DNA of 64,000 nt from Methanobacteriota archaeon. GTDB taxonomy: Archaea; Thermoplasmatota; Poseidoniia; Poseidoniales; Thalassarchaeaceae. The translations under genes were made by a program, and so were the position numbers. The notes under the pieces were generated by a model. The model was not told the DNA's origin and did no database searches. It saw only the letters and a list, made by a program, of their open reading frames with translations. The stretch lies in contig JAOMRN010000001.1 in NCBI GenBank assembly GCA_028355015.1, positions 1,229-65,228 of the forward strand, in the 5' to 3' direction. Positions 1,699 through 45,529 of the stretch are shown piece after piece; positions within the stretch are counted from its first letter, which is position 1, and each line of letters begins with the position of its first letter.

Positions 1699-1722
1699 TT
1701 TTTAATAAAAAATTATTTTTTA

Positions 1723-6067: not shown

Positions 6068-6079
6068 TTAGGAATTAAT

Positions 6080-8172: not shown

Positions 8173-8235
8173 GCATCAGTTTATTCAAATTCTTCTATTG
8201 GATGGATTGAAGATACCCTTCTCTATGGGTGAATC

Positions 8236-8523: not shown

Positions 8524-8533
8524 GAGGTAAAAT

Positions 8534-8689: not shown

Positions 8690-8697
8690 TTTTCAGG

Positions 8698-8991: not shown

Positions 8992-9036
8992 GACACGTCG
9001 TAGAGGTATCGGGAATTAGTATAATCCCTTGATAGT

Positions 9037-27932: not shown

Positions 27933-29060
27933 TTAATCGAATCTTTGGATTCTTTGATTACCTTGATTTGTGGCCTTTCTGGCTATATTTAGGGCTTCTC
28001 CAAGCATATCTGCACTGACTAACTCTTGATCTAACCTCTTATTTGCAACACCAGTAATTATTGACATAACTTTGATTGTATCTCCGAAAGCAGGATCATG
28101 TCTTGCTCCGAATATCACTTGTGCTGTCGGAGATAGCTTTGAAGTCATCAAATCACAGACCTGATTTGCTTGTTCTAGAGTCATATATGGCCCTCCTGTA
28201 ACATGTATTAATGCTCCAGTTGCACCTTCAATATCAATATCTAATAATGGATGATTAAGAGATTCATGTACTACTTCTTCAGGCCCTTGATCTGATTCAC
28301 CATAAAGCATCATTGTAACTCCTCCTCCTTTCATGATAGTTCGAACATCTGCGAAATCAAGATTGATTAGACTAGGTAGAGTAATTGTTTCCACAACTCC
28401 CTTGACAATCTCTGCAATTAATTGATCCATTATACTGAATGCTTCATCAAGTGGCATATTAGGAACGAAATGCAGTAATCTATTGTTATCTAGAACGAGA
28501 ACTGCATCTGCTTCTTTCCTCAATAAGTCTAGCCCTTCTAGTGCTCTTGACATTCTTTGTTTCCTTTCAACTGTAAAAGGAGTTGTCACGATTGCGACAA
28601 CCAAGGCCCCTGCACGCCTTGCTTCATCTGCCACAATCGGAGCAATTCCTGTGCCGGTTCCCCCTCCTAATCCGGCGGTAACGAAAACTAAGTCAGCCCC
28701 TGTGACTATTTTCGAAATTACATCGCGTCCTGCTTCGGCGCATCTTCGACCCATTATCGGGTCACCTCCAGCTCCAAGTCCGCGTGTAATATGACGTCCT
28801 ACAAGCAGCTTTTGCATTGCCCTTGTATGATCTAAGTGTTGTTTATCGGTATTGATTGCTACAGTAATAGCTCCTTCAACTCCAATATGTGTAATGCGAT
28901 TCATTGTGTTATTTCCAGAACCGCCGCATCCACAAACTAGTATTCGTGGGTCAGGTGTTCCGAACGATTCTAGTTCACGATCACGGAGTGCTGTAGGGAT
29001 TCGTCCTGAAGTCGTAGTACGGCCATCCATACCAACTGAACCTTGAGGTAATCCTGACAT
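27933..29060 (-). CDS. ftsZ: Cell division GTPase FtsZ
   Basis: Motifs [12 protein letters not shown], the tubulin signature GLGGGTGTG, and NTDKQHL. Confidence 0.95.
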
Positions 29061-29287
29061 TATATCTCCCCGTGCATCCCCGGCATTACTGCCTTACAAA
29101 TCATCAATGCAATTCTTAGTATTATTAACAGTTGAGGATAATCATAGGTCTAAGAGGCCGATTATCGCAGTAGATTATCAGAACCAGATATGTGTTTTTT
29201 CTCAGATTTTTAAATCATTATTTTTTTTGGATTTTCGAATTGCGACCGGAAATCAACATAAGGCGATGGTGCCTCCAAGGCTTCGTC

Positions 29288-29391
29288 CCGCGCTTAGCTC
29301 AGTTGGCTAGAGCACCTGACTGTAGACTGGAAACACATGGTTGTAGGCAGCCATCAGGGGGTCCCCGGTTCAAGTCCGGGAGCGCGGACCA
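29288..29391 (+). tRNA. tRNA-Tyr (anticodon GTA) with a 27-nt intron at the canonical 37/38 position; CCA encoded
   Basis: Hand-folded cloverleaf. Acceptor CCGCGCT/AGCGCGG (C1-G72, A73, as required of archaeal tRNA-Tyr). D arm GCTC-AGTTGGCTA-GAGC. Anticodon stem CCTGA/TCAGG with loop CTGTAG|A interrupted by 29326..29352. Variable loop GGGTC. T arm CCCGG-TTCAAGT-CCGGG. The mature length would be 77 nt including CCA. Confidence 0.85.
29366..29391 (+). repeat. 26-nt direct repeat, copy 1 (3' end of tRNA-Tyr; att-like)
   Basis: CGGTTCAAGTCCGGGAGCGCGGACCA is identical to 33565..33590. Confidence 0.9.
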
Positions 29392-29413
29392 TAATATCAT
29401 CAGATTAGGTAAC

Positions 29414-30535
29414 TTAAGATGTAATTTGCACCACACATTTACCTTTAGCACGACCAGAAAAAGAGCGATTGAACGCTCCTTGCCATCCTTCTTCGGTATC
29501 TTCTGAATTGAAGTTCCAAATACCGTCGAGCACCGGCTTAATTTCTCCACTTTCTAGATACCCTGCAAGTGTCGAGAGATCTTCATGACTTGGTGAAAGG
29601 AAAAGATACTCCCAGTTTGCACCCACAGACCTAGCAGATTTGAACTCCTTCCTCTTTTCTTTCCTCTTCAAGAAAAGCTTGAGTATCCAAGCAGTCCCAC
29701 CTATCCGACGTATTTCTTCAAGGGTTGGCATACCCGCAATGGTAACGATTTTTCCTCCCTCTTTGACAATCTTAGACATCTCATGACTTTCGGCTGTTGT
29801 ATCGAAACACACATCAAATTTTTCATCATTGCTCCCTCCATACACTTCATCGAATCGAGTGTTTTTGTAATTAATTACTACATCTGCTCCGAGACTTTTA
29901 CACAGATTTTCTTTCTCTCCCTTTGATGCGGTAGTGACAACAAGACCTGCTTTAAACACGTTCTTTGCTAATTGAATAGCAATTGTACCAACTCCTCCGG
30001 CTCCACCTGATATGAAGATTCGGTCACCTTCTTTGAGTCCAGAAGATTTGAGGGCCTGGAGCGCAGTCATACCAACGAGAGGAATCGATGCGGCTTCCTC
30101 AAATGTTAGATTATCAGGCTTCATCACAACATTGGCTGTATCTGCAACACAGTACTCTGCCATTGCACCTCTATACCATGGTGTTTTCTTTCCATCATTT
30201 TCGTTTCCAAAAAGACGAGCAAATACAGGTTGACCAACAGAGAATTTTCCTTCAAGGTCTGCTTCTTCAACAACTCCTGCAATATCGTAACAAATGATAT
30301 GAGGGAAGGATGCAACGGGTCGAACCATCTTCAAATCGCCCGATAGTAGTGCTTTGTCAACTGGATTGATGGAAGATGCGTGAACTTTGATTACGATATT
30401 GTTTGAGGCATCAAAACCATGAGGGTAAGCCACACTTGTTTTTTTCAATTGGGAAGGTTTACCATATTTTGAGAAACCGATTATGTTCATTGTTTTGCCA
30501 CTTGGATGTGCATTCATAATCACGGGAACGTACAT
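29414..30535 (-). CDS. Zinc-type alcohol dehydrogenase-like / quinone oxidoreductase (MDR superfamily)
   Basis: Nucleotide-binding GDRIFISGGAGGVGTIAIQLAK, with an overall GroES-like plus Rossmann layout. The real start may be the internal MNIIGF. Confidence 0.8.
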   Translation of the reverse strand: MYVPVIMNAHPSGKTMNIIGFSKYGKPSQLKKTSVAYPHGFDASNNIVIKVHASSINPVDKALLSGDLKMVRPVASFPHIICYDIAGVVEEADLEGKFSVGQPVFARLFGNENDGKKTPWYRGAMAEYCVADTANVVMKPDNLTFEEAASIPLVGMTALQALKSSGLKEGDRIFISGGAGGVGTIAIQLAKNVFKAGLVVTTASKGEKENLCKSLGADVVINYKNTRFDEVYGGSNDEKFDVCFDTTAESHEMSKIVKEGGKIVTIAGMPTLEEIRRIGGTAWILKLFLKRKEKRKEFKSARSVGANWEYLFLSPSHEDLSTLAGYLESGEIKPVLDGIWNFNSEDTEEGWQGAFNRSFSGRAKGKCVVQITS

Positions 30536-30606
30536 CTGTAAATAAATAAAAAAGTGTCAATAGTGTCCTTTTGTAACAATGTTGTAACCTGTATCCTAAT
30601 AACAAA

Positions 30607-30984
30607 ATGATACTTAGCCACCTTATGTCTCAGATACAATCACAGCGTATGCAATCAATGTGTGAATCAGCTCGAAGTCATGTTGACGACCTATTGGTTT
30701 TACTATCAAAATCGAAAATGCTCAGCATTCTTTACGTAATGAATTGTGATCCCTCTCCAATGCGTTTCTCTGAAATCAAGAAGAGAGTTGACTCATCCTC
30801 AACAACAGTTGCAAGACGATTGGCAGAACTTGAAGACAATGGGCTAGTCACCCGTACTGCCTATGCAACCGTCCCAGCTACAGTCGAATATGCACTAACC
30901 GAAGATGCGATTTCACTTCAGCCCAGTCTTGAATCGATGTTTGAATGGGTGCTCAATCGAGCAGATAATTTTGCCGAAAAATAA
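30607..30984 (+). CDS. HxlR-family winged-helix transcriptional regulator
   Basis: LLSKSKMLSILYVM...MRFSEIKKRVDSSSTTVARRLAELEDNGLVTRTAYATVPATVEYALTE is the typical HxlR wHTH. It is divergent from an oxidoreductase gene, the usual HxlR context. Confidence 0.8.
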   Translation: MILSHLMSQIQSQRMQSMCESARSHVDDLLVLLSKSKMLSILYVMNCDPSPMRFSEIKKRVDSSSTTVARRLAELEDNGLVTRTAYATVPATVEYALTEDAISLQPSLESMFEWVLNRADNFAEK

Positions 30985-31146
30985 ACACATACCACGAAAC
31001 TAGTTATTTCCATGAAATTGTAATATTTTTCTAGAATGTGTCTTTATGATAAAATTTTGATGGTTACGGGCATGTTACTAGGACAGTAACGAGTCTGTTA
31101 CTATCAAAACGGTTCTTTATATGTAGTAAGTAGATGGAATTAGTAT

Positions 31147-33432
31147 ATGTCTCGGTTGAGAGTACTATTAATCTGCTTAATGATGATGGCCATTCCTGCA
31201 TCCCAGGTATCTGCTGATGTTGATGAAACGAATTCAAGTCCAGAGGTAACTATTGGGTTTGGCAATGTTACCAATGACACCATGGTATTCACCATGGATA
31301 CCTCTGTAGATGTGTATGTATACCAAGTAACATTGGCTTGGGAGAATGGTGCTGTTTATTGTGGCATCTCAGCATCCGGTGGACTCTCTGAAGAATATAA
31401 CTTGTATGTCAGCGTCCTTTATGCTGGGTGTTTGACAACAGGATACTATTATGGCGCTCAGGGAGGTGCCTGGATCCCCTCAGGTAGTAATGATACTCTC
31501 ACATCTATTTTGTATCAATCCAACAGCCCTGAGGTATGCATCGGGAATGCGACCTATACAGTCATGTTACCCGATGGGGAGTTCGAAACTCGACAAGCAG
31601 ACTTTGATCCCAATGATTGTCTGAGTTATACTATGTATGAAAGAGAATGGCCGTATGATCTATGGTATGTACTTGATGAAGACGGCAATGATGAAGGCGA
31701 CAATGAATCTGAGGCAGAGGAAATTATTGATGACAGTCTTTATCAGTTCAATGAAGATTTGACTGTATTAGAAAATTTGGAAAGTTTTGATGATTTTTCC
31801 ACTCTCATAGAGGCACTCAACATAACAGGATTAACTGATAATTTCAGTTCAAATAATACACCTCAGATGGGGTGGTCAATCTTTGCCCCCACTAATGATG
31901 CTTTTGCTTCTGCAGGCATAGATTTAGATGATTTTGATAGTTCAGAAGAAATAGAATTTTTGACTGAAATCTTACTCTATCATGTTACTTTCGCAGGACC
32001 ATATGCTATGAACTCAAGTATGGCCTACAACAGCTCGAGCGGCGAGTATGAGCCATACTGCCAGCCTTACACTGCTGACTGGATGCCGATGCTAAATGGA
32101 GAATATGCTGATCCATTCGATTACAGCTCTTGGACTGAGACTGTAACAATTTCGAATGACTGCCAGGGAAATCTTACAGTCAACCAGGCCTATATCATTG
32201 ATGCAGATAATCGAGTCTATGGTTATGAATACAACGGGGTCGATGGCTACCCTTTCAACAATCAACTTCCACATGGCTGGGAAATTGCTGAGGATAATGG
32301 GATGATTCAGGTAATCGATCAAGTTCTATTTCCGGCAAGCTTCAATTCTACACCACCGAATAATGATCAGCCAAGATTCAATCCTAGATTTGATATTCCG
32401 TCCAACCTAGAGAATGATGGAGAGTTTGGAGACTTAATGGATGCATTGGGAATGACTATGTTGATGGACGACATTACTATCGAGAATAGCCCTCAGATGG
32501 GAATGACGATATTCGCTCCAACAGATGAGGCATTTGCTGCGGCTGGAATTAATCTTGACGATTATGATAGTCTCCAGAAACTCGAAGGTTTGTCTGAAAT
32601 CCTTCTTAATCATATCTCATTTGACTGGGTATTATCATTCCCTGATGAATGTACGCCCACAGAGTTTGACATGGAAACTACAGATTCATTTTCGGTAACC
32701 ATTTCAAATGATTGTGAAGGTAATATCTTCGTCAATGAAGCAAAAGTTCTCTATTCCCAAGGAGTAGAAAATGGGGTTATTATCGTCATCGATCAAATAC
32801 TGATGCCGATAGAAGAAGAACCTGTAGAGGAGCCTGTCGAAGAACCTGTAGAGGAGCCTGTCGAAGAACCTGTAGAGGAGCCTGTCGAAGAACCAGTAGA
32901 GGAGCCTGTGGAAGAACCAGTAGATACAACCATAGAAACTCCAGTCGATGATATTCCTTTGCAGGATGATGATTCCAAAGTTGATGGCAGCGGACCTTCA
33001 GTTATTTTAGGTCAAAGCAGTACATTCTTTGGAGCGATGATATTGTTCACCATGGTATTGGTTCTAGTCGGTACAGCTGCGGTAAGATCTCCCAAGTCAC
33101 GATTAGATTCCGTAATAATGGAAAATGAAGTTGAAGCAGATGAATTATTGTCACTTCTTTCTAGATCAAAAATGGTTCAAATTATTCATGCATTGCATTC
33201 AGAAGAAAATCCAATTAGATTTACAGAATTAAAAAATAGAGTTGATACCTCCTCTACCACACTAACAAGAAGATTGGGCGAATTAGAGGACCATAATTTA
33301 GTAGAAAGAATTGATTATGAGACCGTTCCTCCCACTGTTGTGTATAAATTGACTGATTCCGGAACATCTCTTCTTCCTAGTTTAGAGACATTTTTTGAAT
33401 GGGTTCTAAATGATACAAATGAAACTGAGTAA
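31147..33432 (+). CDS. Membrane-spanning fusion: signal peptide, two fasciclin (FAS1) domains, (EEPV)9 linker, TM helix, cytoplasmic HxlR-type wHTH
   Basis: Signal MSRLRVLLICLMMMAIPASQVSA. FAS1 blocks WSIFAPTNDAFASAG...LLYHV...GMIQVIDQVLFP and MTIFAPTDEAFAAAG...LLNHI...GVIIVIDQILMP. TM FFGAMILFTMVLVLVGTAAV followed by basic RSPKSR. The C-terminal 110 aa are colinear with the stand-alone HxlR at 30607..30984. Confidence 0.8.
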   Translation: MSRLRVLLICLMMMAIPASQVSADVDETNSSPEVTIGFGNVTNDTMVFTMDTSVDVYVYQVTLAWENGAVYCGISASGGLSEEYNLYVSVLYAGCLTTGYYYGAQGGAWIPSGSNDTLTSILYQSNSPEVCIGNATYTVMLPDGEFETRQADFDPNDCLSYTMYEREWPYDLWYVLDEDGNDEGDNESEAEEIIDDSLYQFNEDLTVLENLESFDDFSTLIEALNITGLTDNFSSNNTPQMGWSIFAPTNDAFASAGIDLDDFDSSEEIEFLTEILLYHVTFAGPYAMNSSMAYNSSSGEYEPYCQPYTADWMPMLNGEYADPFDYSSWTETVTISNDCQGNLTVNQAYIIDADNRVYGYEYNGVDGYPFNNQLPHGWEIAEDNGMIQVIDQVLFPASFNSTPPNNDQPRFNPRFDIPSNLENDGEFGDLMDALGMTMLMDDITIENSPQMGMTIFAPTDEAFAAAGINLDDYDSLQKLEGLSEILLNHISFDWVLSFPDECTPTEFDMETTDSFSVTISNDCEGNIFVNEAKVLYSQGVENGVIIVIDQILMPIEEEPVEEPVEEPVEEPVEEPVEEPVEEPVEEPVEEPVDTTIETPVDDIPLQDDDSKVDGSGPSVILGQSSTFFGAMILFTMVLVLVGTAAVRSPKSRLDSVIMENEVEADELLSLLSRSKMVQIIHALHSEENPIRFTELKNRVDTSSTTLTRRLGELEDHNLVERIDYETVPPTVVYKLTDSGTSLLPSLETFFEWVLNDTNETE
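32815..32922 (+). repeat. In-frame tandem repeat, 9 x 12 nt (24-nt super-period), encoding (EEPV)9
   Basis: gaRgaRccWgtN repeats nine times, alternating cctgtagaggag/cctgtcgaagaa. It lies inside the 761-aa ORF, just outside the TM helix. Confidence 0.95.
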
Positions 33433-33564
33433 TGTCATTGTTTCACCCCTGAAAGCAGAGTTAGTAACTGCTTTACAGTACCATTTTTACCTTCACGAAT
33501 ATCCTCCAGGCACTGTCGCGACAACTCCCTCAGGAGCACGAACGCCTCATCCGATACCGGACTT

Positions 33565-33590
33565 CGGTTCAAGTCCGGGAGCGCGGACCA
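33565..33590 (+). repeat. 26-nt direct repeat, copy 2 (orphan tRNA-Tyr 3'-end fragment; att-like)
   Basis: Identical to 29366..29391. The upstream sequence does not supply a matching 5' acceptor strand, so this is a fragment and not a second tRNA. Confidence 0.9.
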
Positions 33591-33872
33591 AAAAATATAA
33601 ACTAAGAAAATTAAATTTCAAAATTGTGCGAGAAGATACAAGTATATTTAAATCAAAAATACAAAAGTAAACAGGCATTCATTAATGAATCATTACGACG
33701 TATAATAATGCACGCAGGACACATACTAACAATACTAATTGGCTCCTACGCATCTTTCGCTATTACAGTGATGAGTGTTACGCCATTATTAGGTTGAACA
33801 GCTAAAACTCAGTAATTCCCATCTTACCTCGAGGAATGACTTCAATAGCCTTCGATTACACAGTATAACTTC

Positions 33873-34058
33873 ATGACCGAAAACACGTGTGAGCATGAGT
33901 GGGATAAGAGCGAAGATATAGATCAATTTCTTGACCTGGTAGACTTGAACCCGCAGTTTGTACAAATCAAAGTTAGGTGCTGCAAGTGCGGGAAAACGGG
34001 ATTGACTGACGCTGATACGACTTGGAAGCCAGTATATTGGGATTTTATTGACCCATGA
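33873..34058 (+). CDS. Hypothetical small Cys-rich (zinc-ribbon-like) protein
   Basis: 61 aa with CEHEW ... CCKCG; located in the island. Confidence 0.4.
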   Translation: MTENTCEHEWDKSEDIDQFLDLVDLNPQFVQIKVRCCKCGKTGLTDADTTWKPVYWDFIDP

Positions 34059-34120
34059 GACCGTACAAATGCGAAAGGATTAACAATAATTATTTATATG
34101 AACATACAGAGATGAATTAG

Positions 34121-34489
34121 ATGAATGAAGATTTACAAAAAGAATTGATTTGGGCATTTGGTACATTAGTCGTTTTCATCATCTTTTTATTATTAGGAGG
34201 CATAAATGAAGTCAGTGGAATAGCAATTTCAGTAGGTGCTTTTCTATTAAGTTGGTCTGTAATGAGTTTTTCCCTCAAGAAATACGCCCCTAATAATGAC
34301 TCAGGGAAAGAACTAGAAAACGAAATGAAATGGTTTGCTGCTATCTTGATATTATTTCTTACTATAATGACTATCATCGGGAAAACTGATAGTGAGTTAG
34401 AATTATCATATTCATTATACGCCATTTTAGTATTTGGCTATACTTTGATTTGGATTATTCGCAGTTCTGCTATCAAATATTTCAATTAA
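34121..34489 (+). CDS. Hypothetical four-helix membrane protein
   Basis: 122 aa with four clear hydrophobic segments. It is more protein-like than the overlapping minus-strand ORF 34117..34425. Confidence 0.5.
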   Translation: MNEDLQKELIWAFGTLVVFIIFLLLGGINEVSGIAISVGAFLLSWSVMSFSLKKYAPNNDSGKELENEMKWFAAILILFLTIMTIIGKTDSELELSYSLYAILVFGYTLIWIIRSSAIKYFN

Positions 34490-34502
34490 TTATTGGAGCA
34501 AT

Positions 34503-34606
34503 GGGTAGGCATTGAAAGGGCCCATAGATAGCCGATAAGTTCACTCAAAACATATCAATGGGCTCAAGTAGAAACCCATTGATTCGTCTGTTAATCGATT
34601 ATGCTA
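34503..34606. repeat. Island intergenic repeat, copy R1 (104 nt)
   Basis: It aligns without gaps to 35627..35730, with 73 of 104 identical by hand count. Shared blocks are TGAAAGGGCCCA and the perfect palindrome TAATCGATTA (34592..34601). It also contains the hairpin CAATGGG-n12-CCCATTG. Confidence 0.75.
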
Positions 34607-34651
34607 AGCACAGTTTTTCGAATTTGCGGTTAGATACAATGTTAGTAAAAA

Positions 34652-35542
34652 TCATTTTTCGAACCACCAATCTCCTTCATTATTAGATGGGTAGTTACTG
34701 GGTAAGTTTTTCCAACTCTTATATCCGACTAGGTATACTTTCATTTCCGTCTCCACTCTGGTTATCCCACTCTCATCAAAGACCATACCATATATTGTTG
34801 AGGATTTCATATGACCAGTTTTTCCAAAGGTGCTCTCAGGATTTGCCCTAGCATATTCTCTTGCTTGATGTTCCTTAATTCCTTTATCGAGACAATAATT
34901 GACATAGATTTCTAATCGTTCTGCTTCATCAATATAACTAATATAACCATGCAAACGCCCATCTACGATTTCAGCTTGAAAAATATTTTCAACAGGCTTC
35001 TTATCTATTTTGATGTGGTTATATTTTGGGTCAATAGACATTATTTTCTGATTATAGGAAATAATATGCTCAATCTCGAATAATTCAGGTAAAATCGATT
35101 TCAATGATTCTTTCCAATTCGGAGTGAATCTTTTCATGAAGTTTGGATATGAATCATAATCACCAATTTCATAATCAACCGTTTTAATTATTGTTTGATT
35201 ATTTTCCTTTATTTCCATCAATCTGTAGCTATTACCATCAGGATTTACAGGTTTATATGTCGTATAGAATAAATCACTAATTGGTATTTTTCTATATTTA
35301 ATATTGATTTTTTTCGTGAATTCTTGTCCAAAAATTATGTGATCTGAGGAATCAATTCGAATTATATATTTTCTATGGAATAAGAATAGACTCATTGGGA
35401 AAGCCCCTAAGAAAATAGCAATAACAATACCAAATGTTAAATCATCAGGAATTACGTATAGTCCGATGAATATGAAGAAACCAAAAACAATAGGTAAACC
35501 CTGATAATCGAATACTGGGAATATGATTTTCTTCTCCTCCAT
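34652..35542 (-). CDS. Hypothetical protein, two N-terminal TM helices plus a soluble domain of about 230 aa
   Basis: 296-aa ORF. TM helices LPIVFGFFIFIGLYVI and FGIVIAIFLGAFPMSLFLF. No recognisable motifs. Repeats R1 and R2 flank it. Confidence 0.6.
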   Translation of the reverse strand: MEEKKIIFPVFDYQGLPIVFGFFIFIGLYVIPDDLTFGIVIAIFLGAFPMSLFLFHRKYIIRIDSSDHIIFGQEFTKKINIKYRKIPISDLFYTTYKPVNPDGNSYRLMEIKENNQTIIKTVDYEIGDYDSYPNFMKRFTPNWKESLKSILPELFEIEHIISYNQKIMSIDPKYNHIKIDKKPVENIFQAEIVDGRLHGYISYIDEAERLEIYVNYCLDKGIKEHQAREYARANPESTFGKTGHMKSSTIYGMVFDESGITRVETEMKVYLVGYKSWKNLPSNYPSNNEGDWWFEK

Positions 35543-35626
35543 ATTACTACCTAAACTTTCGACATATGATAGACCTTTAGGTCTGTTCCCCGATAATTAG
35601 AGGAGGGATACCGCCTAACATCGGAT

Positions 35627-35730
35627 GGTTAGGCTCTGAAAGGGCCCACTGAAAGCCCAATAATTCGCCGATTGCAATCGGATGGGTCTAAGCAGAAACC
35701 CTCAGATTTGTCTATTAATCGATTATACTA
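35627..35730. repeat. Island intergenic repeat, copy R2 (104 nt)
   Basis: Homologous to R1. It contains TAATCGATTA at 35716..35725 and the palindrome CCGATTGCAATCGG. The hairpin GCCTAAC-n8-GTTAGGC (35613..35634) overlaps its 5' end. Confidence 0.75.
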
Positions 35731-35780
35731 TGCTCTGATTCTCTAATTGAACGCCAGCCTATGAAAGAGAATACAGATTA

Positions 35781-35825
35781 CCTAATAATTCTTCAATTAC
35801 TATCGGATGGGGCTAAGTAGTAACC
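35781..35825. repeat. Island intergenic repeat, partial copy R3 (45 nt)
   Basis: cctaataattcttcaattactatcggatggggctaagtagtaacc aligns to the middle of R2 (cccaataattcgccgattgcaatcggatgggtctaagcagaaacc) at about 80% identity. Confidence 0.65.
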
Positions 35826-35949
35826 GTATAATTACTAACAACAAATACCTTATTTTAGCGGACCATAATTTTACAACGTTACTACTATTTTAATCTATTT
35901 GAGCACTGAGCCCAAAACTATATGCCGCTTGAAAACTAAGTATATAGTT

Positions 35950-37089
35950 ATGAGTGAGTTGAAAAATCGCGATAAAGAAAAACAAGAAAATGAAACTGTA
36001 TCAGTCTGGTTTAGAGCACAGAATGCTTTGAAAAATGAAGGTAATTTTAGCCGGATTCCGGGAACTCCTTCATATTCTGAATCTAGAAATAAAATATATG
36101 GAAGAAGAAGTGCGAGAACAATATTTAACAATCTTAGAACTGATAAAAAACTTTACAGGAATCATATTTTATCATATAGTGTCCATGGTCGAGAACATGA
36201 TTTATTGAGTGAGAGTGCAATAAATGACGAAGTTGATTCACGAACTGATATCCTTTTTCTTAGAATGAGGACTCCTGGACTTGATGAAATCTGCTGGAAC
36301 TGGAGTCAGGAGCTGCTATCGCATAGAGATTATCTACGATCAGCCGGTATTGATTTACCAATCGAAAATGATAATAGGAAAATCACACAAATTGAAATGA
36401 TTATAAGAAGTGGTTACTTACATAAAATATGGCATAATTCATTGTATGCTATGAGTGAACTAGGAATGGAAATTCCAAACTGGTGTAAAATTCTTCCTTA
36501 CAATCCATTAGTAAATGCATTTCATGGCACAAACCGAGATGATCAAGACATAGGTGAAAGATTATTATCAATTTTAGAAGAAAAATATCCAGAGTTACAT
36601 GCTGAATTAATCGCATCAAATCCGTTCCGTTCACCAAGAATTGGTTTTCAAAATGGGAAAGGAAATGTAGGGGGAACTAAGTGGCCCTCTATTTCTGATA
36701 TTATTTCAAGATTAGAATCAGGAGAATCTGTCGATCAGGATTGGGAAAATAAATTTCTAGAAGAACTGATTTATGATTATGATGAAGAAGAAGATGACTT
36801 CCCATATGAAAGCACAGAGGATCTTTATCGTTCATTGAAAGTCACTAACCTGAGAAGATGGGCAGATGCTGATGAGATAACTGGTGCTTGGTCTATGAAT
36901 CGTGAGAAATTAATTTCGGCTTGGGCTACTAGAACTGAAAAGATGGAGAGTGCTTATAGAAGACAAGGGGGGGCATACCCTAGAGTACCAAGGCTAACCG
37001 ATTGGACTATTTTTATTATGGAGAATGTAAATTTTTTCAAATTAGATGATGAGTTAATTTTAAGCCCGAAGATGCAAAGGAGTGAATAA
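35950..37089 (+). CDS. Hypothetical protein (about 379 aa from the first ATG; the ORF opens at TTG 35899)
   Basis: Long ORF in the island with an acidic patch YDYDEEEDDFPYE. No Walker, HUH or nuclease motif recognised. Its stop overlaps the next gene. Confidence 0.6.
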   Translation: MSELKNRDKEKQENETVSVWFRAQNALKNEGNFSRIPGTPSYSESRNKIYGRRSARTIFNNLRTDKKLYRNHILSYSVHGREHDLLSESAINDEVDSRTDILFLRMRTPGLDEICWNWSQELLSHRDYLRSAGIDLPIENDNRKITQIEMIIRSGYLHKIWHNSLYAMSELGMEIPNWCKILPYNPLVNAFHGTNRDDQDIGERLLSILEEKYPELHAELIASNPFRSPRIGFQNGKGNVGGTKWPSISDIISRLESGESVDQDWENKFLEELIYDYDEEEDDFPYESTEDLYRSLKVTNLRRWADADEITGAWSMNREKLISAWATRTEKMESAYRRQGGAYPRVPRLTDWTIFIMENVNFFKLDDELILSPKMQRSE

Positions 37090-37090
37090 T

Positions 37091-37591
37091 ATGAAATGTG
37101 ACGATTGCAAAGTAGATTTAATCTCAACAGATATGATTGCGGAAACTACCACTTACTATGAAGGCTACTTACGCTCAAGATTGCTTATACCTAATGAACT
37201 ACTTAATGAGGAGTTAAAAGAGTTAGGAAAACTAGAAGCAGAACTAATTTGGTCTGAATATAATAGCTCTCGGAGTAGATATATGGAGCATTTGGATGGA
37301 GGGTCATGGGATGGACGACCTGAATACCTCGATTTGATAAATCAAATCAAAGATATACATGTAGACATTATTGCTAAGGTATGCCCTAAATGCGGCAAAG
37401 TAAAGATCGTAGCCGATTTAATGAGTAGGAAAAAAATATTCACTAGTTTGGAAAAAATGGTAAAAACCCTCGTAATGAAACGTAAAAAATTAAACAAAGC
37501 CGAAGAGTTCGAAAAGAAGGAAAAAGCAAAAAAAGATAGGGAAATTGCTAAACTAAAAAAACAGATTGAGAAATTGGGCGGTGACTCATAG
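37091..37591 (+). CDS. Hypothetical split zinc-ribbon protein with Lys-rich coiled-coil tail
   Basis: CDDC at the N-terminus and CPKCG about 95 aa later. C-terminal tail KRKKLNKAEEFEKKEKAKKDREIAKLKKQIEKL. GGAG-like motif upstream of ATG 37091; GTG 37082 is an alternative start. Likely translationally coupled to the upstream gene. Confidence 0.55.
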   Translation: MKCDDCKVDLISTDMIAETTTYYEGYLRSRLLIPNELLNEELKELGKLEAELIWSEYNSSRSRYMEHLDGGSWDGRPEYLDLINQIKDIHVDIIAKVCPKCGKVKIVADLMSRKKIFTSLEKMVKTLVMKRKKLNKAEEFEKKEKAKKDREIAKLKKQIEKLGGDS

Positions 37592-37641
37592 GCCGGCGTT
37601 CCTTTCAACCAATCGCATGGGCACCCCATCCATCCGTATAC

Positions 37642-37654
37642 GAAGCAAAGGGTA
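37642..37654. repeat. Left arm of a 13-bp inverted repeat flanking the R-M/recombinase cassette
   Basis: GAAGCAAAGGGTA here; its reverse complement TACCCTTTGCTTC is at 40906..40918. Both lie in intergenic DNA rich in ACCCTA/TAGGGT motifs. Confidence 0.6.
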
Positions 37655-37681
37655 CCCTATGGTATGATATGCACCATAGGG
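37655..37681. repeat. Perfect hairpin / palindromic site (9-bp stem, 9-nt loop)
   Basis: CCCTATGGT-atgatatgc-ACCATAGGG lies immediately after the left IR arm, 64 nt downstream of the 37591 stop. It may be a terminator or a recombinase site. Confidence 0.8.
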
Positions 37682-37727
37682 GTATCATAGGGATAACCAT
37701 AAGTATCAATAGCAAGACCATATATTT

Positions 37728-38519
37728 GTGGAACTTGAACAAATTATGAATCGTCTTGCAGAGCAGGTAGCAATCGTAGACAGAAATATTACACCTACTC
37801 AAAACTATTATATTCCTTCAATAGGAACTTCTAGTGAGCCTACAATTGTACATAGACTAGTAGAAGAATGGGTAAAAAAACATCCTGATGAGTTACCAGG
37901 TATTATGCTAAATAAAAGAGGAAAGGGAACAGAAGGTTGTTTTGAAATAAAATATCCAGGTGCCAAAGGTTCTGAAAAGAAATTGGATTTTGGTTTTTCA
38001 AGTTCAACAGGACATGAAAATTCTGATAATTTAGATAACTTAGAATGGGCAATCGAATTTAAAAAAATCAATTGGATTGGTGGGACAGGAACTGACCAAT
38101 CAGAAAGAGCAGTAGGTAAACTATGCTCTCCTTATCCGGCTACAGGACCAATCTTATCCGATGCCTTAAGGGTCATAAAACATAGTCATGGAACACGTCA
38201 TGCAGTGATTTTAATAAGTCCAGATGTCCATTCTGATCAATTAGAATTATGTAAAAATCATCCAGATAGAGAACGTAGATGGAAACCTGAAAATCCAAAT
38301 GATAGAATTATAGCACTAACTAATTCTTTCAAGAAAAATAATGGTTATGCATTTGAAGCAGAACCTCTGTTACCATTTGTTGAGAAAATATTTGAGTATA
38401 AGGAAATTAACTTCAATGAACGTATTATTAAGAAAATTACTGGATTAACAAACCACCCCGTTTATTCAAGATTGACACTTGTTGGTTGGGAAATTAAAAA
38501 AGAATCTATAGCAGATTGA
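37728..38519 (+). CDS. Putative type II restriction endonuclease (PD-(D/E)xK-like)
   Basis: Candidate catalytic pattern KKLDFGF ... (23 aa) ... LEWAIEFKK (D ... E-x-K). It is convergent with, and overlaps by 58 nt, a C5-cytosine methyltransferase gene. Start is GTG 37728 or ATG 37746. Confidence 0.55.
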   Translation: MELEQIMNRLAEQVAIVDRNITPTQNYYIPSIGTSSEPTIVHRLVEEWVKKHPDELPGIMLNKRGKGTEGCFEIKYPGAKGSEKKLDFGFSSSTGHENSDNLDNLEWAIEFKKINWIGGTGTDQSERAVGKLCSPYPATGPILSDALRVIKHSHGTRHAVILISPDVHSDQLELCKNHPDRERRWKPENPNDRIIALTNSFKKNNGYAFEAEPLLPFVEKIFEYKEINFNERIIKKITGLTNHPVYSRLTLVGWEIKKESIAD

Positions 38520-39841
38520 ATTTCAATAATCATGTTTACATTAACTGCATTACCAAGTTGTTTGTATGATTGATTATCTTGTTCACCTAGAATAAACGGC
38601 TTTCCAAAAATACCATCTACATCGAAACTCTGTATTCTAGCACACTCTTTGGGTGTTAAGTGCCGCCTTAACCATCCTACAACGGGTATTTGTGCCATGG
38701 CCACTAGTGCTGGAAAATAGTCACCTCTTTTAACACGAATTCCAGAAGGTCTGAACTGGAAAATATTTTCCCAATTAGTTCGACTATCTGGGCCCGCTTG
38801 CCACTCATATTTTGTTCGACTAACAGGAATTATTGGCTTACCATCTTTATCATTTTCAAGAACTTTCCAGCGTTTTAACCAGCCATCAATGTAGTCCTTA
38901 TTCTCTGAGTATAGATACCTATTTTTCTTTACAAAATCTTGTTTCCAAAGTGGTAAATTAATTTGTTTTATAATCTCTGTTTTATCCATTCCAGATTCGA
39001 TAGGTCTAACCCAGCCATAAGAAGACCAATTTTTGTGTATTTGAATTAATTGTTCTACACTGTATTGCTCTAAATCACCAGGTATCTCGGCATCACCTTT
39101 GAATGAATCTGCCCATATCGGATGACCTGGTAATTTTGTTTCAACATTTACATTAATAAGAAATTCTTCCCACATTTCTAACCATTTAATTTCCTTTTCC
39201 GACATATGGTATTTTTCAGGAACATGGTCGTCTAATATTGTCCTAACATCTAATGAGTTAGTCTCATGTTCCTTTGGAAACACAAATTTACCACTCACTA
39301 GATCAGAACGTATTGCCACAATATACACTCTTTTTCTAACCTGAGGGACTCCAAATTTATTCGGTGAAAGTACAGCATATTCATGATTATATCCTAATTC
39401 AGAAAGTCTCGATTGAATTACAGAAAATGTATTGCCTCCATCATGTTTTACTAGATTAGGTACGTTTTCTAGAAATATAACTGAAGGTTGATGCTTTTCT
39501 GCAATACTACAAATATCGTGGAATAGAGTGCCTCTAGTTTGATCCATAAATCCTTTCTGTGATCCTGACTTGCTAAATGGCTGACAAGGAAATCCTGCAC
39601 ATATTATGTCCATCGGAGGTATCTCATCTATCACTTCCCTTATGTCACAATTAACAGAGTAACCCTGTGGTTGACCCCAATTCAATTCATATACCTCTGC
39701 AGCATTTTTATCAATATCAGATGCAAAAACACATTCATGTCCTAAACGATGTAGAGCTGCATGAAACCCTCCTATGCCACAGAACAAATCTACGAATCGC
39801 ATATCATCACCAGGAAATACACGGTTAATAAGGAAATGCAA
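38462..39841 (-). CDS. DNA (cytosine-5)-methyltransferase
   Basis: Motif I DLFCGIGGF, motif IV GFPCQPFS, motif VI FLENVPNL, motif X QLGNAVNVN, and a long variable target-recognition region. The likely true start is MRFVDLF at 39802. Confidence 0.9.
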   Translation of the reverse strand: MHFLINRVFPGDDMRFVDLFCGIGGFHAALHRLGHECVFASDIDKNAAEVYELNWGQPQGYSVNCDIREVIDEIPPMDIICAGFPCQPFSKSGSQKGFMDQTRGTLFHDICSIAEKHQPSVIFLENVPNLVKHDGGNTFSVIQSRLSELGYNHEYAVLSPNKFGVPQVRKRVYIVAIRSDLVSGKFVFPKEHETNSLDVRTILDDHVPEKYHMSEKEIKWLEMWEEFLINVNVETKLPGHPIWADSFKGDAEIPGDLEQYSVEQLIQIHKNWSSYGWVRPIESGMDKTEIIKQINLPLWKQDFVKKNRYLYSENKDYIDGWLKRWKVLENDKDGKPIIPVSRTKYEWQAGPDSRTNWENIFQFRPSGIRVKRGDYFPALVAMAQIPVVGWLRRHLTPKECARIQSFDVDGIFGKPFILGEQDNQSYKQLGNAVNVNMIIEIQSAIDSFLISQPTSVNLE

Positions 39842-39842
39842 T

Positions 39843-40742
39843 CTATTTCTTGAGTACTAAATCATCTTTAGTCCAAACCTTCGGTTTTTTTGATTTCTCT
39901 ATCTTCTTATTCTTCTTTCTCTTGATTCTGTGCCAAACTTTGTCACCCCACCATTCAGGTATGTCAAATTGATTTCTATTTGTGTGAAATTTATTTTTGA
40001 TAGTTCTTAGAACGCCTTGGCTTCTCCACTGCCCTCCTAATTTACCTTTTATTTCTCTTTTATTTAGTGATCTTGCTACACTAGTTGCAGTTACTTCATT
40101 ATGCACGACTTGCCAAGCCATGTAGTCAATCCATGATTGTTCAGTCCAATTAGGAAATAGGTCTCCGTTCTTATCAAAGTCCCATCCATAAATCGCTCTA
40201 GTAAAGCGAAGTTGTTCTCTTTTCAGATATGCCATACCTTCTAATGTCCTCTCAGAAATTAAACCTCTTTCCATCTCTGCTAAACCTGACATTATTGTCA
40301 AAAAGAACTTCCCCATAGCGTTACTTGTGTCTATTGCCTGACCGCCTAAATCAACAATGTGGACTTTGATATGATGGTCTTCATTAAGATATTCAATGGT
40401 ATTAATGGCATCACTAGTAATTCTAAATAACCTATCTAATTTCATAGAAATAAGATGTTCAAATTTTCCACTTTCAATTCTTTTTAGCAATAGTTTACCT
40501 GCTGGCCTCTCAAAAAGAGGAATACCTCCACTAACGCCTTCTTCAATTATAATATTCCTAGAAAGTAATTCTAATCCTTTCATACGAGCATAATCCATTA
40601 TTTTTTGCTGTTGACTATCAATACTATTTCCTTCATCGACTTGCCTTCCTGTAGATACACGAATGTATGCTACAGTGGAAATTGCATCTGGCTTAGACTT
40701 AGGCACAATTAAGAATATCACATTACAATAGATATAAATCAT
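39843..40742 (-). CDS. Serine recombinase (resolvase catalytic domain plus truncated recombinase domain)
   Basis: Catalytic VAYIRVSTGRQVDEGNSIDSQ, LDRLFR and SGLAEMERGLISERT motifs. The C-terminal LNKREIKGKLGGQWRSQGVLRTIKN resembles the large-serine-recombinase recombinase domain, but no Zn-ribbon/coiled-coil is present. Its stop lies directly upstream of the MTase ORF (1 nt between them). Confidence 0.8.
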   Translation of the reverse strand: MIYIYCNVIFLIVPKSKPDAISTVAYIRVSTGRQVDEGNSIDSQQQKIMDYARMKGLELLSRNIIIEEGVSGGIPLFERPAGKLLLKRIESGKFEHLISMKLDRLFRITSDAINTIEYLNEDHHIKVHIVDLGGQAIDTSNAMGKFFLTIMSGLAEMERGLISERTLEGMAYLKREQLRFTRAIYGWDFDKNGDLFPNWTEQSWIDYMAWQVVHNEVTATSVARSLNKREIKGKLGGQWRSQGVLRTIKNKFHTNRNQFDIPEWWGDKVWHRIKRKKNKKIEKSKKPKVWTKDDLVLKK

Positions 40743-40905
40743 TCTAATCTAAAATTATAGCGCCCCCCTATATTATTCAAGTGAATCATTGGGATGTACT
40801 AGCACACCCAATCATTCTACATGGAAACTAATGGGCGCCTTCAGTAAACCCTACCCTGCATATTTGGAGCATAGATACCGTTGCACTGCAATACAGCGTA
40901 TTCCC

Positions 40906-40918
40906 TACCCTTTGCTTC
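40906..40918. repeat. Right arm of the 13-bp inverted repeat flanking the R-M/recombinase cassette
   Basis: TACCCTTTGCTTC is the reverse complement of 37642..37654. The neighbouring direct 9-mers CCCTACCCT sit at 40849..40857 and 40903..40911, and ATCATAGGG is shared with the left side. Confidence 0.6.
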
Positions 40919-40977
40919 AAGTTGAATCATAGGGTTATCGAAGGAGTCGTTTAATCTCTACTCAATGATCCATACAA

Positions 40978-41364
40978 TTATTTATCATGATTTTTAAAAA
41001 CCAAAAGTTTCCATGCCATGAATAACAATACGCCCAATACTACCACTGGTCCTCCATAAATAATCAGCAACAAACCAGCCAATCCGTTCAATTCATACCC
41101 ACCGCTTAGAGGAAACATAAGTAAAATTCCTAAGAATACAATTAGTCCGCCCACTATTAGCAATGATATTCCAATCACTTTCAACATAGAAATACGAGGG
41201 AGATCTTGATAAATTACAAGTGACTCATTAACTAGGGTGGAAGAGATCTTTTTTATTTCATGATTAGGGTCTTTGTGCCTGAGGCAAAATCCAGACGTCC
41301 TAAACTCTAGGGCCTTGCATCCTTCGTAAGCACACTTCCTTTCGCCCACATAATTAACAGTCAA
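40978..41364 (-). CDS. Hypothetical protein: N-terminal Cys/His zinc-finger-like motif plus three TM helices
   Basis: CAYEGCKALEFRTSGFCLRHKD followed by hydrophobic segments. It is the last ORF of the island. Confidence 0.5.
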   Translation of the reverse strand: MTVNYVGERKCAYEGCKALEFRTSGFCLRHKDPNHEIKKISSTLVNESLVIYQDLPRISMLKVIGISLLIVGGLIVFLGILLMFPLSGGYELNGLAGLLLIIYGGPVVVLGVLLFMAWKLLVFKNHDK

Positions 41365-41414
41365 TTATTAGGGATAGACTTTGCTACGCCACAAACTAGT
41401 AAAGGAGTCACAGG

Positions 41415-41510
41415 GTAGTGTATCAGTTAACAGACTCTGGTGCGGATCTTCTTCCTAGTTTAGAATCATTTTTTGAATGGGTAATTAATGATACAAATCA
41501 AACTCAATGA
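41415..41510 (+). pseudogene. Displaced relic of the 3' end of an HxlR-type gene (31 codons plus stop)
   Basis: It translates to VVYQLTDSGADLLPSLESFFEWVINDTNQTQ*, versus VVYKLTDSGTSLLPSLETFFEWVLNDTNETE* at 33337..33432 (24/31 aa and about 75/96 nt identical by hand alignment). An in-frame TAA lies 4 codons upstream and similarity is lost beyond it. Confidence 0.75.
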
Positions 41511-41631
41511 ATGCATTTTTAAACAATGGAATTGGTTGATTTGAAAGATTTTGATATATTTTCATGTTCAAGGTCTTGGATATAGACTCATAAAGGGATG
41601 TCAAGTCGGCGACTCGCTACGAGGGATGAAT

Positions 41632-42216
41632 ATGGGAGTTACAAAGTACGTACGTTCGGCTTGGAAGAGTCCAAAGCAAAGCATGGAACCTCGTCATAGA
41701 ACTGGTAGAATGGCTGTATGGCGCCACGAACCAGTGTTTCAGAGAATCGATAAACCTACTCGTATTGATGCGGCTCGTCGTGTTGGATACCGTGCAAAGC
41801 AAGGTGTAGTAATCTGCAGAACACGTGTTCGCCGTGGTGGACTACGTAAGGGTGTAGTAAACATGAAGCGTAAACCTTCAAAGTCAGGTGTAACAAAAAT
41901 TACTATGGCTAAGTCAATTCAAAGAATTGCAGAAGAGCGTGTTTCTCGTAGATACCCGAATCTTAGGGTTCTAAACTCATATTGGGTTGGAGAAGATGGA
42001 AAGAACAAATTTTTCGAAGTTATTCTATTAGATCCTAATCATCCAGTTGTTAAAGCTGATAGTCAATGGTCTTGGGTTGCAGATAATCATCACAAGGGAC
42101 GAGCTATGCGTGGTATGACAAGTGCTGGAAAGCGTGGTCGTGGTTTGTACAACAAAGGTAAGGGTGCAGAGAAACTTCGCCCAAGCTTGAAGGCTAACAA
42201 AAACCGTGGTAAATAA
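41632..42216 (+). CDS. rpl15e: 50S ribosomal protein L15e
   Basis: MGVTKYVRSAWKSPKQS..., with RVRRGG and a basic C-terminus typical of L15e. The ORF-track start at 41551 is an upstream non-ATG codon, so ATG 41632 is preferred. Confidence 0.9.
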   Translation: MGVTKYVRSAWKSPKQSMEPRHRTGRMAVWRHEPVFQRIDKPTRIDAARRVGYRAKQGVVICRTRVRRGGLRKGVVNMKRKPSKSGVTKITMAKSIQRIAEERVSRRYPNLRVLNSYWVGEDGKNKFFEVILLDPNHPVVKADSQWSWVADNHHKGRAMRGMTSAGKRGRGLYNKGKGAEKLRPSLKANKNRGK

Positions 42217-42244
42217 GTAATATTCAGCCGAAGGTTGATTTCAC

Positions 42245-42526
42245 TTGAGCCCACCGGCTGTCTCAATGGTCGAGCGAGACATGAGTACTATTCGTGGTCT
42301 TCCCGTGATCATTCCAGATGGAAGAGTATTAGGAACAGTGCATGATACTGTACTTTCAGCAGAGTCCGAGGCATGGTCTTGCACTCATTTATTCGTTTCA
42401 GATCCTCCTCCTAGTTTGGTTGAAGGACGAATTCATGTGGCCATACCTTGGAACTGGGTCCGTTCGATTGGTGATGTTGTAATTCTACGATGGTTTCCTC
42501 CAACTCCTATACCTAAAAAGCCATAA
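42245..42526 (+). CDS. PRC-barrel domain protein
   Basis: A 93-aa protein with GLPVIIPDGRVLGTVHDTVL in a PRC-barrel-like pattern. TTG start. Confidence 0.5.
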   Translation: MSPPAVSMVERDMSTIRGLPVIIPDGRVLGTVHDTVLSAESEAWSCTHLFVSDPPPSLVEGRIHVAIPWNWVRSIGDVVILRWFPPTPIPKKP

Positions 42527-42538
42527 TTTGTATGATGC

Positions 42539-45055: not shown

Positions 45056-45459
45056 TTATTATGATTAAGGTTTTATTGACAATATTGTCATTAATTCTTG
45101 GTCTACCATTAATTTGGATTGGAATTTTACATTTTCAAGACCCAGCATGGTTCGAACCAATAGTTCCTGATTTAATTGGCTATCCTACATTTTGGGTATA
45201 CGCTAGTGGAGTATTTGAGATAGTATTAGGAATCGGTTTGATTATTCCTAAAACTCGTGAAATTTCTGGTTATGGTATTGCTTTAATGTTGGTTGTTTTG
45301 TACGCAGCAAATTTCAATATGTGGGTAAATGATATTGCGATAGGAGGTTCAAAGTTTGGAACTAATTGGCACATATTTAGGGCAACAGTACAGATTTTAT
45401 TAATCTCGGTTTGTATATGGATTGGAAGGAAATCATCTAAACAATATAATTTAGGTTAG
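45052..45459 (+). CDS. DoxX-like four-helix membrane protein
   Basis: 135 aa. GILHFQDPAWFEPIVP ... ASGVFEIVLGIGLIIP ... LMLVVLYAANFNMW resembles DoxX-like proteins. The 4-nt overlap with the upstream gene suggests coupling. Confidence 0.5.
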   Translation: MIIMIKVLLTILSLILGLPLIWIGILHFQDPAWFEPIVPDLIGYPTFWVYASGVFEIVLGIGLIIPKTREISGYGIALMLVVLYAANFNMWVNDIAIGGSKFGTNWHIFRATVQILLISVCIWIGRKSSKQYNLG

Positions 45460-45529
45460 TTTCCTCCATCTTTCAGAAATGAGAAAAAATTGATTTTATG
45501 TTGTATCAGGTAGGGGAATAACCTTTACC

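Follow-up and report, generated by a model that had tools for sequence, protein, structure and literature searches.

The locus raises the question of how the end of one gene came to be present twice in the same region, once in place and once 8,078 bp further downstream. The stretch analyzed (the window, 64,000 nucleotides (nt)) comes from a marine Group IIb archaeon of the Thalassarchaeaceae and contains a complete gene with two fasciclin (FAS1) domains followed by an HxlR domain (31147-33432, plus strand; Pfam Fasciclin 1.2e-24, HxlR 7.2e-14), the last 31 codons and stop of which (33337-33432) recur in diverged form at 41415-41510, directly before rpl15e (41632-42216, plus strand; Pfam Ribosomal_L15e, detected on the identical protein), a conserved gene that anchors the variable region on its right. 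The preliminary description of this DNA had explained the repeat by one insertion that exchanged the 3' end of the FAS1-HxlR gene for a replacement end of its own. Comparison with related contigs reveals that each 96-nt copy is the 3' end of a different allele within one gene family, and the interval from an upstream tRNA gene to rpl15e is probably a mosaic flexible island that arose by at least two separate gains.

Two alleles and a resident gene before rpl15e

The two copies are identical at 75/96 nt and at 24/31 amino acids (aa) by our own count, and a repeat search of the window returned one direct pair at this place (33330-33442 and 41408-41520, 113 nt, 75% identity, spacing 8078). The next best ungapped match of the 96-mer over the whole window and both strands is only 55/96, and short-query blastn gives E = 4e-14 over the core 58 nt, confirming the diverged repeat first described. 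Fifteen codons differ, eight by synonymous and seven by non-synonymous changes, and the differences are distributed 7/1/12 over the three codon positions. An in-frame TAG and TAA (41397-41402) cut off the downstream copy on its 5' side, and to the left of ~41412 it no longer resembles the upstream gene; the TAA and the loss of similarity had been noted. The G+C content is 0.342 for 33591-34508 and 0.354 for 34509-41414 compared with 0.409-0.414 on the left and 0.400 on the right, in agreement with the A+T-richer interval of the preliminary description.

The exact rpl15e protein is listed in 539 contig-index blocks, from which the look-up gave at least 10 contigs, and 23 contigs were read; relatives of the FAS1-HxlR protein occur in Poseidoniales/Thalassarchaeaceae assemblies only. 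The empty sites predicted earlier are found in contigs L010, L011, and L012, where an intact FAS1-HxlR gene of 902-918 aa ends in ...VVYQLTDSGADLLPSLESFFEWVINDTNQTQ 122 nt before rpl15e, and the same empty-site 3' end, ...FEWVINDTNQTQ, is present in several Poseidoniales (Thalassarchaeaceae) contigs. Window positions 41415-46000 match L010-L012 at 99% identity starting exactly at 41415. Because the gene is intact there, the segment 41415-41510 on the plus strand is a true relic of a resident gene, the last 31 codons and stop of an HxlR-domain gene of the QTQ allele (99-99.96% identity with L010-L012 and L014). The displaced end of the preliminary description is therefore real as the remainder of the resident gene, and it is not the original end of the upstream FAS1-HxlR gene.

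The upstream gene is the second allele, termed ETE, and the copy at 33337-33432 is its own natural 3' end. Successive segments of the ETE gene are 81, 85.5, 73, and 79% identical to the empty-site (QTQ) allele, the last value being that of the 96 nt, and no step in identity occurs at 33337 over the compared length along the HxlR domain, whereas the rpl15e side stands at 99%. Because the part before 33337 is as diverged as the last 96 nt (73-86% over its whole compared length), this is not a host gene that received a new end, and the proposed swap has to be given up. The accompanying idea that the two ends diverged as coding sequence in different lineages is retained in the form of separate ETE and QTQ alleles. 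The same ETE allele with the same 3' end is present in L005 and L009. The linker of FAS1-HxlR contains a 12-nt tandem repeat (32791-32946) encoding (EEPV)n in about eight units, and the copy number varies by allele with more units in L005 (12084-12326) than in the window.

The site adjoining rpl15e takes several forms. L014 has an intact 104-codon HxlR-only gene of which the relic sequence is a part, L005 has the same 31-codon relic, and L008, L009, L013, and L015 are without the relic and carry a repeat and a 79-aa open reading frame (ORF) instead; an intact HxlR domain lies upstream in most contigs retrieved with a relic-derived pattern. A head-to-head fusion of the resident HxlR gene with a third, inverted HxlR paralogue is seen in L016 (1121-1474), L017, and L029; this paralogue is an intact 110-aa gene in L011 and L012. 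As the join falls exactly inside the conserved TTL(T/S)RRL recognition helix, the HxlR paralogues act as homology patches for rearrangement. The HxlR 3'-end relics at window position 41415, L005 13967, and L006 9738 belong to two paralogues and are cut within ~8 nt of each other, at the codons V-V/E-Y. A recombination hot spot at one HxlR codon was considered and rejected, as a pattern scan of metagenomes gave only six loci and the truncations in L014, L016, L017, and L029 fall elsewhere; the shared breakpoint codon may be a coincidence or a pseudo-site.

Two blocks on either side of a shared segment

The closest relative is contig L014, which shares 99.6-99.96% identity with the window over 28054-29397, 33565-34508, and 41415-46000, with L014 1-1345 corresponding to 28054-29397 and L014 1314-2257 to 33565-34508 (99.6-99.9%). 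Relative to L014 the window has two extra pieces, block A (29392-33590, 4,199 bp, with a host-like G+C content of 0.409) and block B (34509-41414, 6,906 bp, G+C 0.354), separated by 918 bp common to both. This resident segment (33591-34508, 99.9% identical to L014 1340-2257) encodes a 57-aa membrane, a 61-aa zinc-ribbon, and a 122-aa membrane ORF, is partly common to L005, L009, and L015, and follows directly after the tRNA in L014, relative to which it is not inserted DNA. Because L014 keeps 33591-34508 and is without both blocks, the 8,078 bp are not one insertion as first described. L014 is also without the FAS1-HxlR gene upstream. In L005, the single-cell genome AG-319-P11, the two repeat copies are only 1,261 bp apart, and the DNA between them shares 33433-33822 on the left and contains neither recombinase nor methylase, such that in L014 and L005 the DNA between the copies does not come and go as a unit.

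The left limit of block A is an intron-bearing tRNA gene (29288-29391, plus strand; Rfam RF00005, 56.4 bits) that is 100% identical in L005 and L006. By our reading of the sequence its anticodon is GTA (Tyr), and an intron of ~27 nt follows the anticodon loop; ARAGORN reported no tRNA in the whole 64 kb, missing the gene detected with Rfam. The terminal 26 nt of the tRNA are repeated identically and in direct orientation at 29366-29391 and 33565-33590, and block A is present or absent exactly at this repeat, L014 passing from the tRNA straight to position 33591. Adjoining the FAS1-HxlR gene, the minus strand of 33435-33590 encodes the C-terminal fragment of a tyrosine integrase, int(C), which reads in frame through the tRNA repeat and has its stop 2 nt from the convergent FAS1-HxlR stop. 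These 156 nt translate as ..WSALPDLNRSPVSDEAFVLLRELSRQCLEDIREGKNGTVKQLLTLLSGVKQ; the translation ..FWSALPDLNRSPVSDEAFVLLRELSRQCLEDIREGKNGTVKQLLTLLSGVKQ is kept in two L005 copies despite differences in the DNA, and the peptide WSALPDLNR-SPVSDEAFVLLRELSRQCLEDIREGKNGTVKQLLTLLSGVKQ* is conserved in three copies. The segment 33435-33590 is the right end (attR) of a tRNA-targeted block containing the FAS1-HxlR gene. Its interpretation as a non-coding RNA or a complete tRNA was rejected, as Rfam at E <= 1 and ARAGORN gave none and the segment is minus-strand coding sequence plus 26 nt of tRNA.

The N-terminal integrase part, int(N), with the catalytic domain would be expected next to the tRNA gene, and in the window a zinc-type alcohol dehydrogenase gene (29414-30535, minus strand; Pfam) is placed there instead, followed by a small HxlR regulator gene (30607-30984, plus strand; Pfam). 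L005 carries at the same tRNA an 8-kb element (1052-9137) in which int(N) is present as a 445-aa Phage_integrase ORF (1.8e-11) that reads ..NWSALPDLNR into the tRNA, the other end being an int(C)-like fragment. The Pfam match covers residues 195-349 of this integrase and the attachment (att) site lies near residue 410, after the catalytic domain. Two tRNA-repeat-bounded blocks stand in tandem in L005. As int(N) is absent from the window, block A is a remnant or an integrase-less island, and it would represent the footprint of a tRNA-integrated element that no longer has most of its integrase. The 68-nt piece, the att fragment, and the L005 integrase were not found among viral contigs.

The system that matches the preliminary model is e14 at icd of Escherichia coli, with its displaced icdC end (PMC13626634). 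A single 8.1-kb element that entered the FAS1-HxlR gene at its 3' end in this manner and supplied a replacement end would account for a displaced C-terminal fragment that adjoins the host flank at the far end, for empty sites holding intact genes in that position, for an A+T-rich interval containing a recombinase, and for copies that differ mostly synonymously and at third codon positions, as the ends do in e14 and phage 21. The model nonetheless fails two of the three defining features tested. The 5' part of the gene here is not as similar to the empty-site allele as the flank is, being as diverged as the end with nothing swapped onto a host gene, and the interval is composed of two unrelated blocks and resident DNA, of which L014 retains the middle without having the FAS1-HxlR gene and L005 a short version without recombinase or methylase. 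The att remnant beside the supposed new end, an integrase fragment with a tRNA repeat, further indicates a tRNA target. Such an insertion has next to no probability; it would have been an event of an already-known kind, which is not what happened here.

An assembly chimera, in which sequences from different strains became linked through short repeats (those of the tRNA 3' end, of the HxlR ends, and of the D2 sites of block B), would fit a hypervariable locus in which most related contigs end and in which the block B junctions are not spanned by a second contig. However, FAS1-HxlR(ETE) is followed by int(C), the tRNA fragment, and the 33591+ segment in L005 and independently in L009, with L005 also having the relic, L014 confirms the flanks at 99.9%, and the repeats at the block B junctions are 10-15 nt long and therefore too short to mislead an assembler, all of which makes a chimera very unlikely.

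Block B, its module, and the TA-centered sites

The place of block B is occupied in L014 by 211 nt corresponding to the 5' two thirds of the 104-codon HxlR gene. The resident HxlR gene of the QTQ allele would have lost its first 211 nt to block B, being eroded from its 5' side with the relic left before rpl15e. Block B is in turn a mosaic, with orphan cassettes bounded by repeats besides the module described next, and its limits are GGAGCAATGGG-TA-G on the left (34495-34508) and GGAGTCACAGGG-TA-G on the right (41403-41417). Within it lies a self-contained module of ~3.3 kb (37646-40914) composed of a putative restriction nuclease gene (37728-38519, plus strand), a C5 DNA methylase gene (38462-39841, minus strand; Pfam DNA_methylase 1.3e-77), and a serine recombinase gene (39843-40742, minus strand; Pfam Resolvase 1.2e-30, Recombinase 3.4e-4). 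At the nuclease side the module begins with a 16-bp palindrome, CAAAGGG-TA-CCCTATG (37646-37661, site 2), and at the recombinase side it ends in CAAAGGG-TA-GGGAATA (40899-40914, minus strand, site 3).

The module is present in at least seven flanking contexts. It is 87-98% identical over ~3.1-3.2 kb in L018-L028 and L046 with different flanks, and the variant of the window itself (98%) has other flanks in L027, L028, and L046. P0002, an 87%-identical copy of the recombinase, lies in one unit with the methylase and a 271-aa gene. Nine contigs share this unit at 99.9% identity, and the DNA flanking it takes at least five forms next to the nuclease gene and two next to the recombinase gene. Identical joints are found in independent assemblies (L023 from ENA and L024 from JGI, and likewise L044 and L045). 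Every copy of the module starts with the perfect 16-bp palindrome CAWAGGG-TA-CCCTATG, the module-side half of which is constant while the flank-side half varies (CAAA, CATA, CAAT), and CAAAGGG-TA likewise forms the flank half of the site at the opposite end. In all cases the break between the 99.9%-identical modules and their flanks is only a few bases away from the TA. The joints center on TA, and one module arm is joined to six partners with some joints inverted, which differs from the behavior of an attP/attB pair; the nuclease-side flank in L020 is the reverse complement of the recombinase-side flank in the window. A GC central dinucleotide was rejected as other copies show AC, TC, and CC, whereas the TA center of GGGTACCC fits every copy.

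The same arms also adjoin a second element. The P0098 element, with a 53%-identical recombinase, ends in ACGAGGG-TA-CCC followed by five different arms, two of which also adjoin the methylase module, and its left limit is the 5' end of the D2 repeat discussed below. One arm turns up at either module end and also beside the P0098 element, which is unrelated to the module, and another adjoins both elements. L038-L045 share a block of ~6.5 kb in which seven to nine orphan ORFs lie between two serine recombinase genes (269 and 261 aa) that are separated by ~5.3 kb. The copies of this block agree at 99.9% identity and stop at GGG-TA-CCC, after which five different sequences follow.

In the window the mapped boundaries coincide with such sites. 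The strict 12-mer AGCAWWGGGTAS occurs exactly three times in 64 kb, at 34497, 37644, and 40905, each at an independently mapped boundary, and with one mismatch allowed there are five matches compared with 1.08 expected (0/100 shuffles reach five). CACAGGGTAG constitutes a fourth site at the right edge of block B, placing all four mapped boundaries on CAWWGGG-TA-type sites.

A different account would have block B and the other changes arise by homologous or microhomology recombination, the CAWWGGG-TA sequence being a conserved part of a repeated promoter or leader on which such events tend to fall and the recombinase serving only its own 3.3-kb module or acting as a resolvase or invertase. The head-to-head HxlR fusion of L016, L017, and L029 is a homology-driven event of this kind, and in L006 a deletion joins the int(C) fragment to the small HxlR gene across seven shared bases, CGAATAT. 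Like a shared leader, the D2 repeat precedes ORFs and a D2-like stretch precedes the recombinase gene, and relaxed versions of the motif are not enriched. Recombination by homology would, however, need longer identity and would not invert arms, whereas the 99.9%-identical modules diverge within a few bases of the TA and the same arms meet different partners in both orientations; this account is unlikely.

The earlier claim of a restriction-modification (R-M) system with a serine recombinase is upheld for the C5 methylase and the recombinase, which Pfam recognizes, and the cognate nuclease is only putative. The methylase matches TIGR00675 (1.5e-75) and PADLOC MTase_II (3.6e-87), as expected for an R-M methyltransferase. 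The putative nuclease gene (263-271 aa) is convergent with and overlaps the methylase gene and is conserved in every module copy. Its product has invariant residues Asp-87, Glu-106, and Glu-110-Phe-Lys-112 on adjacent strands, and the AlphaFold model is confident (pLDDT 91.7, pTM 0.90); only 26 relatives are found, at least one being annotated as Poseidoniales and the rest from marine metagenomes. No family or sequence match was obtained with Pfam, PADLOC, or NCBIfam, and no fold neighbor in the PDB (best Foldseek E = 0.05). The module is a probable R-M system.

The D2 repeat (~120 nt) is present in three copies on the plus strand (34496-34633, 35619-35740, and 35742-35860; families D2/D4 of the repeat search), the 5' end of the first being the left boundary of block B. 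Its consensus is ..GGGTAG CCTCTGAAAGGGCCCACTGAAAGCCC ... ATGGGTCTAAGCAGAAACCC.TTGATTTGTCTGTTAATCG, it is intergenic, and an nhmmer profile detects it nowhere else in the 64 kb. Many copies occur in the variable region of L008, L009, L013, L015, L020, and L022, with at least eight in L008 within 10 kb upstream of rpl15e, and in the sequences examined the repeat is confined to the variable region and usually lies upstream of small ORFs. The 5' end of D2 looks like a recombination site. A structured RNA or attC-like hairpin was rejected for D2, with RNAalifold giving only six pairs and -2.3 kcal/mol. The diverged D2-like stretch upstream of the recombinase gene was seen by eye and not reported by nhmmer.

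The remaining genes of block B are orphans. Between D2 copies lies a 296-aa membrane ORF (34652-35542, minus strand), followed on the plus strand (35899-37591) by ORFs of 396 aa (35899-37089) and 169 aa (zinc-ribbon with a coiled-coil-like tail), neither of which belongs to a Pfam, PHROG, PADLOC, or NCBIfam family. For the 396-aa orphan 42 relatives are found, every one in marine metagenomes, and those at 90% identity (L035 7140-8231, L036 859-1965, and L037) have genes for an AAA ATPase, a UPF1-like helicase, a PLD nuclease, and a radical-SAM protein as neighbors. This neighborhood resembles a defense island, and the orphan may be part of an as yet unrecognized system. The right-hand cassette (40915-41414, minus strand) combines an arm of ~50 nt (40908-40960) with a 128-aa zinc-ribbon/membrane ORF (40978-41364); the arm recurs in L018, L025, and L026, is inverted in L020, and lies beside a different recombinase element in L041. 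PADLOC and NCBIfam recognized nothing in block B except the methylase and recombinase, and exact-protein look-ups gave none for the recombinase, the methylase, and the 296-, 128-, and 166-aa ORFs, probably owing to start-codon or allele differences.

The serine recombinase and assembly of the island

The recombinase has 299 aa and 1,876 relatives at E <= 1e-5, the best 120 of which are 261-292 aa long and come mostly from short marine contigs. The Pfam Resolvase domain spans residues 24-176, with Arg-28 and Ser-30 of the YIRVST motif invariant in 32 homologues, and this catalytic domain is closest to TP901-1 integrase (4.8e-17). The Pfam Recombinase domain is detected just above threshold (21.2 bits compared with a cut-off of 21.1) and NCBIfam gives weak matches to CcrB and XisF. 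The AlphaFold model has a mean pLDDT of 70.7 with a short C terminus of low confidence, and the best Foldseek matches, over 245-290 columns, are Bxb1, an attL-bound serine integrase, and the N-terminal and recombinase domains of phiC31 (4bqq), with 245-270 columns for Bxb1 and phiC31. Pfam reports only Resolvase and Recombinase and no zinc-ribbon/coiled-coil domain, the protein ending at residue 299. No close relatives of the recombinase were found among viral contigs, where a profile search gave distant phage serine integrases (<= 42% identity).

The coiled coil of serine integrases restricts the pairing of sites and sets the direction of the reaction, and in Bxb1 the non-palindromic central dinucleotide alone sets the orientation. 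Given that TA is self-complementary and that the direction-imposing domain is missing, joining of any sites in either orientation is what would be expected here, and the observed joints agree with this. From the joints and the site distribution we infer that the serine recombinase catalyzes the joins with crossover at the TA and that block B entered by this route. Recombinases of this family would exchange DNA at ~16-bp CAWWGGG-TA-SCCTWTG sites with arms of ~30-50 nt, cutting at the central TA, and any two sites could recombine in either orientation so that cassettes would be moved, inverted, deleted, or swapped. The excised circular module is predicted to have the joint ...ACAGCGTATTCCC-TA-CCCTATGGTATGATATGC..., and the corresponding empty site would read ...CGTATACGAAGCAAAGGG-TA-CCCTTTGCTTCAAGTTGAATC..., containing a perfect 24-bp palindrome.

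Several observations weigh against this reading of the island. Gain of the blocks in the window and their loss in L014 are not separable from two states, and block A without int(N) fits both integration and survival of a remnant after rearrangement. No contig independently spans 34508/34509, 37653, 40906, or 41414/41415, and because of this the exact arrangement of block B rests on one assembly. Enrichment in the window as a whole is limited to the stricter 12-mer and is not seen with the relaxed motif versions (10-mer and 16-mer), and sites 3 and 4 have one good half-site each. For the module, neither an excised circle nor a reciprocal empty site was found, and the nuclease is assigned from its gene neighborhood and motif, with a confident model that has no fold neighbor in the PDB.

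With respect to known systems, block A resembles the elements of type I (SSV-type, "suicidal") archaeal integrases, in which attP lies in the integrase gene, int(C) remains at one end, and the tRNA 3' end is repeated (PMC7253208). A regenerated tRNA and its displaced fragment are general marks of island ends (PMC4383910). The att sequence inside the integrase frame, int(C), and the direct tRNA repeats are shared, and the differences are that the site in L005 lies near the 3' end of the gene past the catalytic domain, that int(N) is not in the window, and that the host is mesophilic and planktonic, the type I integrases being placed in geothermal habitats and hyperthermophilic archaea (PMC7253208). 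As the att site is past the catalytic domain, the integrated copy of the integrase may stay active.

The block B recombinase shares with the large serine recombinases (Bxb1, phiC31, TP901-1, CcrAB, and XisF) the catalytic and recombinase fold, short inverted half-sites, and a central dinucleotide. It differs from them in the length of 261-299 aa without a zinc-ribbon/coiled-coil region (Pfam), the palindromic TA, and the many partner sites in both orientations. Short sites between cassettes of varied order and orientation are also characteristic of integrons and of serine-invertase multi-inversion systems (Gin, Cin, Pin, Min, and Mpi). Unlike in integrons, Pfam finds no IntI tyrosine recombinase in block B, there is no hairpin attC, and the recombinase rides on a cassette; unlike in the invertase systems, the recombinase is not a small invertase with a C-terminal helix-turn-helix. 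Bacterial mobile R-M units with a recombinase are similar in that methylase, putative nuclease, and recombinase form a compact unit found at several genomic places, the differences being the archaeal host and a nuclease candidate without a known family or fold neighbor.

Islands at tRNA genes are ordinary; a network of serine-recombinase sites in an archaeon is not, and the papers searched describe none. Archaeal serine recombinases have been seen in transposons and never fully investigated (PMC8371274), and in Poseidoniales only a few low-quality proviruses have been found (PMC11706807). The locus provides a base-pair-resolved view of how a flexible island is assembled in Poseidoniales, uncultured archaea that rank with the most abundant of the plankton and whose integrated elements are barely described, and combines tRNA-targeted att-in-gene integrase elements, erosion of a resident gene, and recombination between paralogues. 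The evidence suggests, in addition, cassette shuffling by a truncated large-serine-recombinase family. That archaeal serine recombinases of ~260-290 aa without a zinc-ribbon/coiled-coil region run integron-like cassette shuffling in Marine Group II, acting in either orientation at TA-centered palindromic sites, some of them the 5' ends of D2 repeats, and riding on the cassettes, and in this way build and continually rearrange the rpl15e island and probably others, is offered as a tentative proposal. If the sites are real, the poor assembly of such regions, with most homologues on contigs of 1-3 kb, would be explained, and in vitro assays could directly probe a small serine recombinase that acts without set direction on a 16-bp core.

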